A program made the position numbers and the translations under genes. From the NCBI GenBank assembly GCA_964602805.1, contig CAZRSJ010000005.1, positions 1-63,103 on the forward strand: 63,103 bases of DNA. Reading direction: 5' to 3'. Below the pieces are notes generated by a model. That model ran no database searches, was not told the origin of the DNA, and saw nothing but the letters and a program-made list of their open reading frames with translations. The DNA is from an uncultured Chromatiales bacterium. GTDB lineage: Bacteria > Pseudomonadota > Gammaproteobacteria > Poriferisulfidales > Poriferisulfidaceae. Shown piece after piece: positions 48,083 to 53,258 of the stretch. How positions within the stretch are numbered: the first letter of the stretch is position 1; each line of letters opens with the position of its first letter.

Positions 48083-48165
48083 CGCTGCATTTTACTTTAG
48101 GGTTAGCACATGGACACGTGCACGGCACAAACATGGCCTAGATCGCGTCCGACCAATCGTATTTC

Positions 48166-48193
48166 TTGACAAATTAGCAATTCGGTTTACAAT
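48166..48193 (+). promoter_or_regulatory. sigma70-type promoter candidate for the XRE-ImmA gene
   Basis: TTGACA (48166-48171), 16-nt spacer, TACAAT (48188-48193). It lies 37 nt upstream of ATG 48231. Confidence 0.5.
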
Positions 48194-48230
48194 ATTAAAA
48201 TTCCTTTGAATTCTATAAACCGAGTTTAAT

Positions 48231-49298
48231 ATGATCGGCGCACGCTTGAAGCGGGCACGGGCGGCTTCTGGTCTGTCGATGAAAGCGTTGGGCGAGCAGG
48301 CCGGGGTCAGTGCCAACATGATTAAGAAATATGAGCATGATGTAAGTATGCCCAGTTCTGGAGTGCTGCTCAAACTAGGGCAGGCACTGGATGTTCGCTC
48401 TGAATATTTCTTTCGCCCGGTGAATGTAGAACTCACTCGGGTTGAATACCGAAAACGTGCCAATACCCCAGTATCCGTGCTCAAACGGATAGAGGCAGAC
48501 GTGCTGGAGCAAGCCGAGCGCTGGCAGGAACTAGCCAATCTTTGGCCACAATTTCCAGTTTCCAAGTTTGACCAAGTTCAAAACCTACCGGACTGCTTGA
48601 ATGACTTGAAACAGATTGAAAAAGTGGCGGAACGGGTGCGGACGGTATGGAAACTTGGCATGAATCCGATTCCGGACCTAGTCGACCTGCTTGAGTCGCA
48701 TGGAGTGTTGGTAATCGTCACACAAGTGGAAGATCAGACGAAATTCAGCGGCCTTCAGGCGGTGGTGGCCAAACAACCGGTGATTGTGATTTCAGCCAAC
48801 TGGCCAGGAGATCATCAGCGCTTCACATTGGCTCATGAGCTTGGTCACCTGCTCCTGCACAAACGCCTCGACCCGGTACTGGATGAAGAAAAAGCTTGCA
48901 ACCGATTTGCCGGAGCTTTTCTGCTGCCTGCGACCAGTACTCGGCAGCAACTTGGAAAGAAGCGCCATAGCCTAGAAATGTACGAACTATTTCTTCTGAA
49001 GCATGAATTTGGGTTGAGTATGCAGGCGTGTCTATATCGGGCAGCCGACTTGGGGATTATTGACGAATCCGTGTGCAAGCGCCTATTCATGCGTTTCTCT
49101 TCGCAGGGGTGGCGCAAAAAGGAACCCGGCAAAGCTTGCCCAGGCGAACGAACAGTTCTGTTCCAGCAACTAGTTCATCGCGCCTTAGGCGAAGGCATCA
49201 TCAATGAATCAAAAGCGGCCGAATTGCTGAAGACTTCTCTTATGGCCTTCCGCAAAATGCGAAATTTGGAGTCTTTCAGTGCAGGTTTTCAGTTGTGA
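48231..49298 (+). CDS. XRE-family HTH fused to ImmA/IrrE-type (M78, COG2856) zinc metallopeptidase
   Basis: 355 aa. N-terminal HTH (IGARLKRARAASGLSMKALGEQAGVSANMIKKYEHD) and HExxH FTLAHELGHLLLH in the C-terminal half. Confidence 0.85.
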   Translation: MIGARLKRARAASGLSMKALGEQAGVSANMIKKYEHDVSMPSSGVLLKLGQALDVRSEYFFRPVNVELTRVEYRKRANTPVSVLKRIEADVLEQAERWQELANLWPQFPVSKFDQVQNLPDCLNDLKQIEKVAERVRTVWKLGMNPIPDLVDLLESHGVLVIVTQVEDQTKFSGLQAVVAKQPVIVISANWPGDHQRFTLAHELGHLLLHKRLDPVLDEEKACNRFAGAFLLPATSTRQQLGKKRHSLEMYELFLLKHEFGLSMQACLYRAADLGIIDESVCKRLFMRFSSQGWRKKEPGKACPGERTVLFQQLVHRALGEGIINESKAAELLKTSLMAFRKMRNLESFSAGFQL

Positions 49299-49761
49299 TG
49301 CCAATATTTTTATCGATTTGGAAGAGGGAGAAGTTTTAGATTTTCTCTTCCAGCTTCCTCATCGATTTCTGGTTCCAGACATCCTCTTTGTGGAAGAGCT
49401 CCAAGAACAGCACAGTTATTTTCTTGACTTGGGCTTGGGCCTTGGCGAATTGTCTCCTCAATCAATGGCCGATGCGGGCGAACTAATACAACGATACGGC
49501 GGCTCATGCAGCAGAAACGACTGCTTCGCTCTCGCACTAGCTAGACAGGAACAATGTGTACTACTCACCGGTGACCACGGTCTGAGGAATGCAGCAGAAA
49601 CGGAATCCACACCAGTAAGGGGAACGATTTGGGTGATCGAGCACCTCATCAAGCATAGGATGATCACCAAGCAACGCGCCCTTTCGGTCTATCAGGCCAT
49701 GCAGGTAAGAGGCCGACGCCTGCCATGGGATCTAGCCTACCGGCGATTGAGGAATCTCTGA
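49279..49761 (+). CDS. PIN-like domain protein (DUF3368/DUF4411-like putative toxin)
   Basis: 160 aa (GTG start, 20-nt overlap upstream). Acidic residues in PIN-like positions (CDANIFIDLEE, LLTGD) and a C-terminal GTIWVIEHLIKHRMI helix. Confidence 0.55.
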   Translation: MQVFSCDANIFIDLEEGEVLDFLFQLPHRFLVPDILFVEELQEQHSYFLDLGLGLGELSPQSMADAGELIQRYGGSCSRNDCFALALARQEQCVLLTGDHGLRNAAETESTPVRGTIWVIEHLIKHRMITKQRALSVYQAMQVRGRRLPWDLAYRRLRNL

Positions 49762-49782
49762 CGGATCCGGAATTGAAGATTC

Positions 49783-50583
49783 TCAGCCTTCCATGTTTGT
49801 GACTAGTAATTCTGTCGACCGCGAACGATGTGATGCCTGCCCAGCGATAACACTATGCCGTTCTAACTGAGTATGCTGGCCAAAATCTTTGTAAAGAGCC
49901 CTCACGCTCTCATGATCTGCATTAGTCATTGCGAAATTGACACCCCGGCTGACAGCACGATGTAAAGCTTCGCACAGCCGAATTTGGTCTTCCCAAGCAA
50001 ATATTTTTTGGTTGTATTTAACAAAGCCGTTCAGATTGTGGCGCACCGTGTAAGGAGGATCAACAAATAAAAAGTCGCCTCTTTGTGCTGCATCAATGGT
50101 TGCCTCGAAGTCTTGATGTACAAGTGTCGCGTTTTTTAGCGCCTTTGACCATGCTTTGAAATCCTCATTGGGGAAAATGACTGTTTGCTTAGTGCCGACC
50201 GGCACATTGAATTGCCCATGCTTGTTTTCGCGATAAAGACCATTCCAGCAGGTTCGATTAAGGTACATGAATTGTGCGGCGCGGGTTACTGGTTTACGTA
50301 AACACTTTGACCGCATTTCATAATAATATTCTATGGAATGTCGAGCCGCATGTTGCATAAGGAAACACTCAAACTCCTCTAGTTCATCTCGAATCACGGT
50401 ATACAGTTCGATCAATCGCCCATTGATGTCCCCGAGCAATGCACCGAGTGGCTGGATTTTGAAGAAAGCCGCACCCCCGCCTAGAAATGGCTCAATATAT
50501 TTGCCTTTGAATTCAGGAGGAGAAAATTGGCCGCTTTCAAACAACCAACGCTTTCCACCAGCCCACTTAAGAAAGGGATTCAT
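49783..50583 (-). CDS. Dam-class (D12, alpha-group) N6-adenine DNA methyltransferase
   Basis: 266 aa. MNPFLKWAGGKRWL, motif I EPFLGGGAAF, motif IV FLFVDPPYT. Confidence 0.9.
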   Translation of the reverse strand: MNPFLKWAGGKRWLFESGQFSPPEFKGKYIEPFLGGGAAFFKIQPLGALLGDINGRLIELYTVIRDELEEFECFLMQHAARHSIEYYYEMRSKCLRKPVTRAAQFMYLNRTCWNGLYRENKHGQFNVPVGTKQTVIFPNEDFKAWSKALKNATLVHQDFEATIDAAQRGDFLFVDPPYTVRHNLNGFVKYNQKIFAWEDQIRLCEALHRAVSRGVNFAMTNADHESVRALYKDFGQHTQLERHSVIAGQASHRSRSTELLVTNMEG

Positions 50584-50594
50584 GGCGATCTACA

Positions 50595-52949
50595 CTATTT
50601 AGGGAACTTCGGAGAAACTTCTTTTTTCAGCCACCCGACAAATTCGAGATCTTCATCCGTATAGGTCTTGAATTGGTTTTTGTGTGCCGCGATGTTACGC
50701 AATTTATTAAAAACCTGAATCCAACCGAGATAATATTTTTGTCCGAGGCGTTCATTAGGCATTGGGTTCTTAAAAACATGCTTGAAATGATCCCAATTGT
50801 TTGGCTGCTTCACAATTTCCACAAAGTCTACAACATCTAGGTAAGCTTCTTTCGGTTTCCGGCGATCTTTATCTTCTCTTTGCTGTTTGGTGAAAGCATT
50901 CTTACGAATACGTTCGCTTTCTACACCAACCTCCCAATATGCAGGATCGCCGCTACCCAACCGCTCCGTGCCATGGATTTTTTTTAAAGTATTAATTACG
51001 TAATCTGTCATGCGTTCTGCCAATTTCATAAGAAAGCCATTCACCTCATCAATCTCATCTGAACTGCCTTGCTCTCTCCATCTCTGAAATTCCTCACTAC
51101 CAAAATCAGGATGTACGTCAGCAAGTGTCTGCATCAGATAGTATGTATATTCTTTCACCCCGCCCTCGCCAAATCGACGAGAGAATTGTGTCTTGATTAC
51201 ATCATCCGATGCGGTTTTGACAAAGTCAAACAACGGTTGGCAGAAATTGATAATCTGATTTGAAAAATCTTCTGGGCTCATCAAGTAGAAATCAAGCGAT
51301 TTCTTATGTGTCAAATACGTCACCACTTCTGCTATGGTGGATAAATGTGCACGAATGCCTGGGTTTGTAGCAATAAATTCATCTTTGCCTCCTTCCCAGC
51401 GCTTAGGGTTGGCCTTACGAACCTCTTCAAAGTAAGCACTCAATACTTGGAAAGCGCGTGCCACTGTTTTCTCATCGGTAGCATCCGATAACGGGCCATT
51501 CGCCAACGTTTTACCAGCAAGTCTTCCAATAAGGCCGGACCTTCTCAATCCCTTTACCACCTCGGATATAGTTAGATTCTGCGTGGGCCCGGGTGACACT
51601 CCGTGCACCGCAAAACGCCGTGCTAAGGGGCTTGATTTGTCTGTGTTCAATACACGCACAACGGCTGAGGCCAAGGCTGATAGTGCTGTTGAAGGATCGC
51701 TGTCTCCCATTCTGATGTCAGCTAAGAGACTGTCTAGTAAACCTCTTGGGACACTTTTTTGCTTGTGATTAATCGTGATAAACAAGTCGGCTTCCTTCTC
51801 TACTTCCATCTTCTCAAATGCCAAAACAAAAAGACTTTGATCAAGGAATTCATCGGATAAATGGGAGAATCCATACAATCTATGTTGGCCATCAATGACC
51901 CATGCAGATCGGTATTTCGACGGCAAGGTTATCCAGCCAAATTTAATGTTCGGGTCCGTATTCTCCCGATTAGATATCAAGTCAAATCGAGGCGAGTCAG
52001 AGAAATTCACCAGAATGTTTGTGGGGAAAAAGCCGCCTTTTTTGATAAATTCACCAATCCGTTTGATACGAGACGCTAATATCATCCGCTGATAGGCTGG
52101 GCGACCATCCGGGTGATTTAGTGCTTGGTGATTAATAAAAGAGATCTTTAATAAGCTTCTAGGCGTTGCCACAAAACTATAGAATTTCTCTCCACCAATT
52201 TTGCCGCGAATCGCGGGTAATTTGACGTTGCCTAAACCCGGAACTTTTTTGCCCTTTAGAAATTCTCCAAGTATCTGGTACTTGCCAGCAGGCCCCATGT
52301 GTTTCACAAAAGTTTGAAAATATTGGAGTTCATTTTCGGTTATTATTTCAATATTGCCATCACTAGCTCTTTCGATATCCTGCGAAGACCAAAGAATATT
52401 ATTCGTTGCGTAAACCCATATTATCTTGGGCTTTTCTCTACCACTATCAGCAAATCGTTTGTTGATAGTTGAGCGAAAATAATTTTGAAGCGATATGGTT
52501 TCCTGAAGGTCCTTTTGCAAAGAACGCCGGCCACGTTTTGCCCGAGACTTGCATTCAATAACGAGTGCCGTTTCTTCATCTTCGGCATATACATCGACTT
52601 GTTTCTTGCCTATAGAACCATCGGCACGTTGAAAATTAATTTTAAAATTAGCACCATTTAATATCTGGTACCCCATCAGATAAAACAAGCACCAAACACT
52701 ATCTTCGAGCAATTTGTTATGGCTCTTATTGCGCTTAAGCTGAGTAGAGCGTTTTCCATGCCGTTGGACTTCCCAACCTTTATCTTCTTCTTCTGGAACA
52801 TCTACGGGATGAACACTCTTTGCATCATATGTTCTTCTTCGTTTACGATACTCTGAAACACGTTTTGTCTCGTCTACAAGCAGTAAGAGAAAATTTGATT
52901 CCTCATCATCAACCTTTGGTTTGGTTTGTCCAGTTTCTTTTGCCATCAT
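50595..52949 (-). CDS. PD-(D/E)xK nuclease-like + DGQHR (DndB/ParB-like) + C-terminal HEPN fusion protein
   Basis: 784 aa. N-terminal KQVDVYAEDEETALVIECKS, central WVIDGQHRLYGF with FITINHKQKSV, C-terminal VFNKLRNIAAHKNQ (Rx4H). 11-nt gap to the methyltransferase gene. Confidence 0.75.
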   Translation of the reverse strand: MMAKETGQTKPKVDDEESNFLLLLVDETKRVSEYRKRRRTYDAKSVHPVDVPEEEDKGWEVQRHGKRSTQLKRNKSHNKLLEDSVWCLFYLMGYQILNGANFKINFQRADGSIGKKQVDVYAEDEETALVIECKSRAKRGRRSLQKDLQETISLQNYFRSTINKRFADSGREKPKIIWVYATNNILWSSQDIERASDGNIEIITENELQYFQTFVKHMGPAGKYQILGEFLKGKKVPGLGNVKLPAIRGKIGGEKFYSFVATPRSLLKISFINHQALNHPDGRPAYQRMILASRIKRIGEFIKKGGFFPTNILVNFSDSPRFDLISNRENTDPNIKFGWITLPSKYRSAWVIDGQHRLYGFSHLSDEFLDQSLFVLAFEKMEVEKEADLFITINHKQKSVPRGLLDSLLADIRMGDSDPSTALSALASAVVRVLNTDKSSPLARRFAVHGVSPGPTQNLTISEVVKGLRRSGLIGRLAGKTLANGPLSDATDEKTVARAFQVLSAYFEEVRKANPKRWEGGKDEFIATNPGIRAHLSTIAEVVTYLTHKKSLDFYLMSPEDFSNQIINFCQPLFDFVKTASDDVIKTQFSRRFGEGGVKEYTYYLMQTLADVHPDFGSEEFQRWREQGSSDEIDEVNGFLMKLAERMTDYVINTLKKIHGTERLGSGDPAYWEVGVESERIRKNAFTKQQREDKDRRKPKEAYLDVVDFVEIVKQPNNWDHFKHVFKNPMPNERLGQKYYLGWIQVFNKLRNIAAHKNQFKTYTDEDLEFVGWLKKEVSPKFPK

Positions 52950-53200
52950 TCGTTAGGAAAACATCTAAAGATGGCAAACGCACATTGTCCTTGACTACAG
53001 GATAACTCTGTACCATTCATAGCGGCTTTTCTTCGCGAAACTACCGGTTCGAAAAACTTGTGTGGGCTTTTTGTGTGGTCGCAATTCTTGGAAATGGGCA
53101 ACGACATAATGACAAAAATATTTACAAATGTCTAGGTGTGGTTGCCGCAAATTGGTACTCTAAAAGTTTAGAGTCCTAAAAATTTAGATCTGCTTTCGGT

Positions 53201-53229
53201 TTGCAAGGGTCACTGGATTTGGCTAGAAT
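53201..53229 (+). promoter_or_regulatory. sigma70-type promoter candidate for rplU-rpmA
   Basis: TTGCAA (53201-53206), 17-nt spacer, TAGAAT (53224-53229). It lies 30 nt upstream of the rplU ATG. Confidence 0.5.
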
Positions 53230-53258
53230 ACGCGCCCCCTGACGGTTCAATCCTTCTC

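Follow-up and report, generated by a model that had tools for sequence, protein, structure and literature searches.

A mobile two-gene module linking a predicted nuclease–DGQHR–HEPN protein to an adenine methyltransferase

We describe here a two-gene module in a 63,103-nt stretch of DNA from an uncultured Chromatiales bacterium (assembly GCA_964602805.1, contig CAZRSJ010000005.1, forward-strand positions 1–63,103), the whole of which is referred to below as the window. The module consists of genes for proteins of 784 and 266 amino acids (aa), co-oriented on the minus strand, with the 784-aa gene upstream and a spacer of 11 nt (tgtagatcgcc) between the two (Table 1). An original prediction, an earlier reading of the same DNA, had given both open reading frames (ORFs), the coordinates of the pair and its spacing as we find them, and the peptide strings that it quoted all occur in the translations. 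The genes lie in a compositionally foreign island of ~5 kb (40–50% GC, on a contig that is otherwise ~60%), flanked by dapF, DUF484 and xerC on one side and by rplU-rpmA-obg-proB on the other, and sibling metagenome samples show an identical arrangement of the island. A scan of its boundaries yielded no convincing flanking direct repeats, and neither a tRNA gene nor an integrase was found within it.

Table 1. Coordinates of the module, its domains and other features. Positions are those of the window, except where a related locus (L number) is named.
Feature	Position	Strand	Evidence or remark
Low-GC island with the two-gene module	48083..53258	.	GC 0.40-0.50 versus ~0.60 in flanks
Near-consensus sigma-70 promoter, TTGACA-16-TACAAT	48166-48193	+	11/12 matches; just upstream of HTH-M78 gene, left island edge
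Helix-turn-helix (HTH) + M78/IrrE peptidase protein	48231-49298	+	PADLOC RmrA (Rosmer antitoxin-like component) E ~2e-53; NCBIfam spr1629 8e-37
PIN + DUF3368 protein, 160 aa	49279-49761	+	Overlaps HTH-M78 gene; no PADLOC match
Dam-family (alpha-class, D12) N6-adenine DNA methyltransferase, 266 aa	49783..50583	-	TIGR00571, PF02086, PADLOC MTase_II
Nuclease-DGQHR-HEPN protein gene, putative restriction/effector subunit, 784 aa	50595..52949	-	ORF, homologues, shared architecture
Probable HEPN (Swt1/Abi2-like) RNase domain, aa 641-784, R751-N-I-A-A-H756	50598..51029	-	Weak profiles, motif position, conservation
Helical linker, aa 542-640, least conserved part	51030..51326	-	All-helical model, high pLDDT; without family assignment
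DGQHR domain (ParB/Srx-fold, DndB/DpdB-like), aa 243-541, DGQHR at 353-357	51327..52223	-	TIGR03187, PADLOC DpdB, Pfam DndB
Predicted PD-(D/E)xK nuclease domain, aa ~76-215, E82, D119, E132-C-K134	52305..52724	-	Foldseek, profile matches, residue conservation
Weak sigma-70-like promoter candidate upstream of operon, TAGACA-17-CATTAT + extended TG	53106..53134	-	Consensus scan, 9/12 matches; pattern match only, no evidence of function
Divergent relatives with radical-SAM trio	L023 8311-12451; L024 8470-12693; L030 377-5431; L033 2776-5951
30%-identical relative with D12 methyltransferase, adjoining Thoeris-like genes (TIR_2/ThsB_TIR, LD_cluster3)	L034 7122-9468; L035 3746-6092		Defence-island context

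The smaller protein can be assigned securely, from its sequence, as a full-length Dam-family methyltransferase. It matches TIGR00571 (dam) with E=1.4e-68 (231.4 bits vs 114.85), PF02086 with E=3e-45 (155.4 bits vs 22) and the PADLOC model MTase_II with E=9.7e-92, and motif I (EPFLGGGA) comes before motif IV (DPPY), which is the alpha-class order; the alpha-group, Dam-class N6-methyladenine (m6A) assignment of the original prediction is thereby confirmed. The nearest solved structures are those of DpnM (1.1e-45) and E. coli Dam (1.7e-30), both GATC enzymes. The protein keeps the N-terminal LKWAGGK lysine and an aromatic-N-G-L-x-R...N-V-P loop, which we take to be the element carrying most of the GATC contacts in the Dam–DNA structure; in comparison with Dam itself the N, L, R, N and P positions of the loop are kept, while the equivalents of R137 and Y138 differ. 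The loop is nearly identical in all 16 Dam-type partners at the related loci surveyed below, the overall identity of which is only ~50–70%, and this near-invariance suggests that the Dam-type partners have one common specificity. That specificity is probably GATC.

The 784-aa protein combines a nuclease domain, a DGQHR domain and a C-terminal domain with an Rx4H motif, in the order originally described. The DGQHR/ParB-like assignment of the core, which had also been made from the letters, appears secure: the cut-off of TIGR03187 is passed (E=3.1e-44, 151.8 bits vs 58.85, aa 246–541) and the motif is present, and Pfam DndB (E=3.4e-11) is likewise above its cut-off, with PADLOC DpdB at E=1.9e-24. 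Pairwise comparison makes this the most conserved domain of the large protein, 58–88% identical where the linker that follows is 28–67% identical; a Pfam search returned no match to that linker (aa 542–640). An AlphaFold2 model of the whole protein, built with 51 homologues, is poor in the DGQHR core, where the predicted local distance difference test (pLDDT) falls below 50 at residues 269–310, 353–364 and 394–415, and Foldseek with this model matched the nuclease domain as the sole part. A full-length family profile run against PDB sequences gave chance matches to ribosomal protein S16 only (E ~0.3).

The N-terminal region is modelled with confidence (aa 30–210, pLDDT 81–92), and its Foldseek matches in the PDB are led by VC1899 (6.7e-4), followed by Cdn1, Card1, Can2, AF1548 and McrC, and include the R2 endonuclease. 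The motif reads E82...D119-x12-E132-x-K134; the spacing of x13 given in the original prediction was a miscount. Conservation of this motif and the fold matches of the model to Card1/VC1899-type nucleases support a predicted PD-(D/E)xK nuclease, as originally proposed, and among relatives the Hjc and Card1_endonuc profiles do reach their cut-offs, P0265 for example scoring 25.8 bits with Hjc; what falls short is the profile evidence in the window protein, which stays below threshold (Hjc 18.6 bits vs 21.1; Card1_endonuc E=0.02).

For the C-terminal domain the proposed HEPN identity is probable and not proven, the fold being structurally unconfirmed. A separate model of aa 540–784 is all-helical (pLDDT 91.3) and places R751-N-I-A-A-H756 where the penultimate helix ends and the following loop begins, with one final helix after it. 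The canonical Rx4-6H site occupies that same position, and a polar residue following the arginine has also been described (Anantharaman et al. 2013, PMC3710099). Profiles of the HEPN clan all stay sub-threshold in the window protein: HEPN_Swt1 reaches 18.1–20.5 bits against a cut-off of 27.5 (E=6e-4 on the isolated region), Abi_2 E=0.027 and PADLOC AbiD E=0.0019, with a weak match to DUF4145. Across 36 members of the family HEPN_Swt1 was matched in eight, Abi_2 in six and DUF4145 in two, and in a set of 53 divergent members HEPN_Swt1 matched 21 (best E=1.2e-7; one relative at 26.2 bits vs the cut-off of 27.5). We favour HEPN because the Rx4H motif stands in the canonical position and because of these 21 matches; the Rx4H motif of the original prediction stands, but the HEPN assignment has weaker support than was given to it there, the profile matches being sub-threshold in the window protein and stronger in relatives and the structural search reported below not confirming the fold.

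Homologues of the large protein number more than 1500 and are annotated merely as "DGQHR domain-containing protein". The best 120 are 65–85% identical and ~784 aa long, and sequences of ~70% identity come from Alpha- and Gammaproteobacteria, Thermodesulfobacteriota and Dadabacteria. When a profile of the C-terminal region was searched exhaustively, it retrieved 744 clusters at 50% identity, 376 of them at E<=1e-10; nearly every full-length match measures 745–795 aa and carries the C-terminal domain at the same place, so that a single architecture extends across the 744 clusters. The phage collection contained no full-length homologue.

Residue conservation was assessed in 53 representatives that are 26–51% identical to the window protein. 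All 53 share D353–R357 (the DGQHR motif), Y286-Q-R288, F390, N394 and Q397 without exception. The nuclease residues E82, D119 and E132 are kept in 48, 50 and 49 members, respectively, and D124 in 48–50; the K134 position holds lysine in 34 and threonine in 13, and both of the 'ECT' members sampled, P0250 and P0290, come from the radical-SAM/GHKL context described below. At the C-terminus R751 is kept in 51/53 and H756 in 50/53. The nuclease triad is degenerate in P0199, P0296, P0181, P0208 and P0260, and the Rx4H motif in P0185, P0295 and P0290 (alignment A3); the two effector motifs are never missing together, and DGQHR is retained throughout. Conservation of the catalytic motifs of all three domains down to 26% identity argues that the nuclease and HEPN domains would be catalytically active, and an always intact DGQHR domain beside effector motifs that are never both lost suggests one indispensable ParB-fold core with two partly redundant effector domains.

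Partner genes were surveyed at 22 genome loci (21 assessable, one on a truncated contig) and in six divergent representatives. A Dam homologue lies immediately downstream in 15 of the 22 loci and immediately upstream in one, and in another five the adjacent gene encodes an MT-A70 methyltransferase of ~210–220 aa (PF05063, E ~1e-27 to 1e-30); in PADLOC, REBASE-derived Type II models are matched by the Dam and MT-A70 types alike (E=1e-92 and 1e-86). An adenine methyltransferase is thus adjacent or nearby in all 21 assessable loci and in four of the six divergent representatives, the other two having a radical-SAM/GHKL module instead, and this obligate linkage to a modification gene bears out the functional link that had been claimed from the window alone. 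It holds at 30–34% identity, P0199, P0232 and P0303 being paired with D12 enzymes and P0194 with MT-A70. In relatives the two genes overlap, where in the window they are separated; there are also loci whose methyltransferase is encoded on the other strand or lies one gene away. Dam and MT-A70 types are interspersed on the tree of the large proteins, which implies at least three exchanges.

The most divergent branch (~27–31% identity) has no methyltransferase nearby and includes proteins of the Novosphingobium plasmid pNL1 and an Agrobacterium plasmid, the pNL1 homologue being 31% identical over 96% of the length. Three conserved neighbours are found here, namely a radical S-adenosylmethionine (SAM) enzyme of ~540 aa, a GHKL/HATPase_c_3 ATPase of ~510 aa and a short protein of the DGQHR family (TIGR03187, E=2e-33). 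From their sequences this trio may be an undescribed DNA-modification module, and the layout of the branch would parallel the modification-plus-restriction layouts of Dnd and Dpd. One of these loci (L024) additionally encodes a PIN_8 protein and a second GHKL ATPase. The module is horizontally mobile and placed in defence islands: besides the relatives that adjoin Thoeris-like genes (Table 1), mobile or defence neighbours include a relaxase element at one relative's locus and an RmrA-like gene pair in the window. The MT-A70 and radical-SAM partners, the size of the family and the separate nature of that gene pair were absent from the original account, which was to that extent incomplete.

Comparison with known systems places the module nearest in outline to several of them without making it a member of any. 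With Type II restriction–modification (R-M) systems (DpnII/MboI with DpnM) it shares a stand-alone alpha-class m6A methyltransferase, close to DpnM/Dam, beside a gene for a PD-(D/E)xK nuclease, in small mobile two-gene cassettes whose separate genes are adjacent and co-conserved, as they are here. It differs from them in its ~780-aa nuclease subunit with DGQHR and probable HEPN domains, which falls outside the restriction-enzyme families recognised in PADLOC-DB 2.0, and in a methyltransferase fold that is interchangeable between Dam and MT-A70. Dnd, Dpd and Ssp likewise join a domain of the ParB superfamily (DGQHR or the DUF262 NTPase) to a coupling of DNA modification with restriction, and the divergent branch resembles Dnd and Dpd further in having a short DndB/DpdB-like DGQHR protein with putative modification genes. 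In those systems, however, DGQHR is stand-alone, not fused to effectors, and the modification here is simple m6A. The window protein is no equivalog of DndB or of DpdB, since it scores far below the equivalog cut-offs (DndB 15.3 vs 328 bits, DpdB 85 vs 300) and no dnd or dpd genes, nor any ssp genes, occur in the window island or its flanks. The Type IV enzymes GmrSD and BrxU are single polypeptides with a ParB-like NTPase and a nuclease domain, but theirs are DUF262 and the HNH-like DUF1524, which target modified DNA without a cognate methyltransferase, whereas a TIGR03187 DGQHR domain is here combined with PD-(D/E)xK and HEPN and paired with a methyltransferase; since neither PF03235 (DUF262) nor DUF1524 is matched in the window protein by Pfam, it is not of the GmrSD/BrxU/SspE type. 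Type III systems (Mod/Res) also pair an m6A methyltransferase with a large PD-(D/E)xK subunit, and a nucleoside triphosphate (NTP) switch is conceivable in both; the methyltransferases here are small and Type II-like, unlike Mod, and the large protein is not a Res subunit because it has no helicase-like domain of superfamily 2 (SF2), Pfam, NCBIfam and PADLOC giving no helicase or ATPase family match at all. PADLOC returned no system-level match, only partial DpdB and DndB matches and a weak one to AbiD.

The reading that we prefer, and to which we give slightly better than an even chance, is that of a mobile two-gene module of R-M type in which the 784-aa protein is the restriction or effector subunit. 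The Dam/DpnM-like enzyme would methylate adenine in host DNA, probably at GATC. The invariant ParB-fold DGQHR domain would act as an NTP-dependent DNA-binding switch, reporting the partner's mark on DNA and licensing the two effector domains; there is precedent in other proteins, as DndB-like proteins bind ATP/GTP (bioRxiv 10.1101/2025.10.10.680097). The N-terminal Card1/Hjc-like DNase would then attack unmodified (invader) DNA, and the C-terminal HEPN-type RNase would form a second arm resembling abortive infection, in keeping with the proposal that HEPN domains fused to restriction nucleases serve as a back-up RNase arm, an RNA-directed or suicidal second line of defence (PMC3710099). Four elements of this reading are inferred: that unmethylated DNA is what is attacked, that the protein depends on NTP, that it cleaves RNA, and that the module has any phenotype against phage. 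The same applies to the earlier suggestion that the methyltransferase marks self DNA while the fusion protein senses modification status, to which gene context alone would point.

Several observations weigh against this reading, which is drawn wholly from computation. With the nuclease gene first and the methyltransferase gene second in a single operon, and no controller protein evident, a restriction enzyme that is constitutively active would be awkward to establish on entry into a new host. Across the methyltransferase exchanges none of the domains of the large protein shows extra divergence, which is not what one would expect of a nuclease that recognises a particular sequence by itself, unless the two types of methyltransferase have a target in common. 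Card1/Can2-type nucleases, its nearest look-alikes, are non-specific enzymes that act on single-stranded DNA or RNA or that nick, not sequence-specific cutters. The large protein matches no restriction-enzyme model in PADLOC-DB 2.0, and Foldseek with the C-terminal model found no significant neighbour and no HEPN entry (best E 1.2 in the PDB and 0.12 in BFVD). The lack of GATC depletion in host sequence (420 observed vs 415 expected), which could be listed here too, is uninformative either way; other palindromes likewise show no depletion. Gene order, the Card1/Can2 likeness and the exchangeable methyltransferase together suggest that simple site-specific cutting may not describe the enzyme, and two variants, modelled on Type III enzymes and on SspE, would explain these points.

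In the former variant the large protein would have no sequence recognition of its own and would be recruited by the methyltransferase, or read DNA through it, as Res relies on Mod, the ParB-fold NTP switch replacing the helicase-like ATPase that makes Type III sliding complexes. ParB-fold proteins can serve as NTP-gated DNA clamps. The fold binds diverse NTPs (bioRxiv 10.1101/2025.10.10.680097), Pfam and NCBIfam reveal no recognisable target-recognition or HTH domain in the large protein, the genes are tightly co-transcribed or overlapping, and the methyltransferase types are interspersed on the tree with no domain diverging more across an exchange. A conserved interface with both Dam-class and MT-A70 enzymes is nevertheless hard to envisage when the two folds are unrelated, and the loci that have the methyltransferase on the opposite strand or behind another gene fit poorly, so that we think this variant unlikely. 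Distinctly unlikely, in our estimation, is the SspE-like alternative, by which the DGQHR domain would sense host m6A and thereby stimulate NTPase and nuclease against incoming unmodified DNA or RNA, making the methyltransferase an activator as well as a protector. Xiong et al. (2020; cited in PMC10853773) are said to have reported that the SspE NTPase is stimulated by phosphorothioate-modified DNA, and the logic of a ParB-like NTPase with a nuclease parallels SspE and GmrSD; a nuclease-first operon would be less dangerous if activity requires the mark, and co-occurrence with the modification gene is obligate. Against this, the domain is a member of the DGQHR family (TIGR03187), whereas SspE and GmrSD have a DUF262 domain, and PF03235 was matched, weakly, in just one of 53 members.

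Type II R-M systems are known to act as addiction modules, and the present module, small, self-contained, horizontally mobile and very highly conserved across phyla, might be a selfish element of this sort, stabilising its mobile island by post-segregational killing with little role in phage defence; in the window it also adjoins a gene pair that resembles a toxin–antitoxin (TA) cassette. Such a role is compatible with defence and does not exclude it, though, and the defence-island contexts of some loci, together with two effector domains whose nucleic-acid targets are typical of anti-invader systems, lead us to judge the purely selfish explanation improbable. That the large protein is a DndB-like regulator, an NTP-dependent repressor or limiter of methylation with flanking domains that are vestigial or only bind DNA or RNA, seems highly improbable. 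DndB has been described as an ATP-modulated repressor in the dnd operon (PMC4507180; discussed in PMC10853773), the DGQHR core is the sole invariant part of the family, and some members have degenerate nuclease or HEPN motifs. Yet at least 90% of members, as far down as 26% identity, keep the catalytic residues of the two flanking domains, which are never lost together, and it is this conservation of the effector active sites that makes a pure regulatory role unlikely; a conserved length of ~780 aa would be needless in a simple regulator, and the palindrome that precedes the operon in the window has no conserved counterpart at related loci. We discarded a Type IV reading, in which the methyltransferase would be an orphan with no relation to the large protein, since the two genes co-occur strictly and are coupled in an operon.

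A bolder version of the restriction-subunit reading, which is tentative and which on balance we doubt, would make the large protein a new class of restriction subunit: a ParB-fold NTP switch, in place of a helicase or a simple dimeric endonuclease, would discriminate modified from unmodified DNA largely independently of the writer and fire both a DNase and an RNase. Independence of the writer is suggested by the partners, which comprise two unrelated m6A methyltransferase folds and the radical-SAM/GHKL/DGQHR module; it would follow that the radical-SAM/GHKL/short-DGQHR trio of the divergent branch represents a DNA-modification pathway not described before.

The architecture has been recognised in part. 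Anantharaman et al. (2013; PMC3710099, Table 1) catalogued a Swt1-family HEPN–ParB fusion under the entry "ParB (Saro_3948)"; probably, though unconfirmed, this is the pNL1 homologue of 31% identity. The Swt1/Abi2 HEPN fusions of that paper are probably of the same superfamily, and their back-up RNase proposal applies here too, but only the domain fusion was listed, without the N-terminal nuclease, the m6A partner, the partner exchanges or the radical-SAM variant. Fusions of COG1479/DGQHR to PD-(D/E)xK and HEPN domains were noted by Makarova et al. (2013; PMC3632139). The original prediction had recognised no named system: we too found no name for the module in the searchable literature or PADLOC 2.0, and in that literature the three-domain protein as a unit, the obligate m6A partner, the Dam/MT-A70 exchanges and the radical-SAM variant are not described. 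The module is probably under-counted in defence surveys because PADLOC 2.0 misses it.

If the proposed function is correct, the module would be a widespread R-M variant, present in hundreds of sequence clusters from several phyla, in which a ParB-type nucleotide switch runs the restriction subunit and DNA and RNA cleavage reside in one polypeptide. It would link ParB-CTPase-fold switches, modification-linked defence (Dnd, Dpd, Ssp) and the HEPN RNases of abortive infection, which are now separate fields. Since its partners are interchangeable, nature has already set up an experiment on the reading of modification status; the radical-SAM variant hints at a possible new DNA modification and, with just two genes, the module would be easy to test.

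The remaining features of the island lie on either side of the module. The HTH-M78 and PIN genes, divergently oriented to the module in the same low-GC island, look like a Rosmer-like or TA cassette. As a candidate part of the system the pair was rejected, and is treated as a separate cassette, because it is absent beside the module in all 22 related loci. On the other side, two 8-bp arms set 2 nt apart form a perfect inverted repeat (ACTCTAAA-CT-TTTAGAGT) at window positions 53157–53174, 208–225 nt upstream of the start codon of the 784-aa gene. This 18-bp palindrome sits just upstream of the weak promoter-like site; it was rejected as a family-wide operator because the corresponding upstream regions of 19 related loci hold no conserved equivalent. 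One GATC falls inside the intergenic spacer of the operon (tgtaGATCgcc, window 50584–50594) and a second, within AGATCT, lies at 53187–53190 in the upstream intergenic region; the two are perhaps trivial, but may be relevant if the methyltransferase targets GATC and expression is methylation-sensitive.

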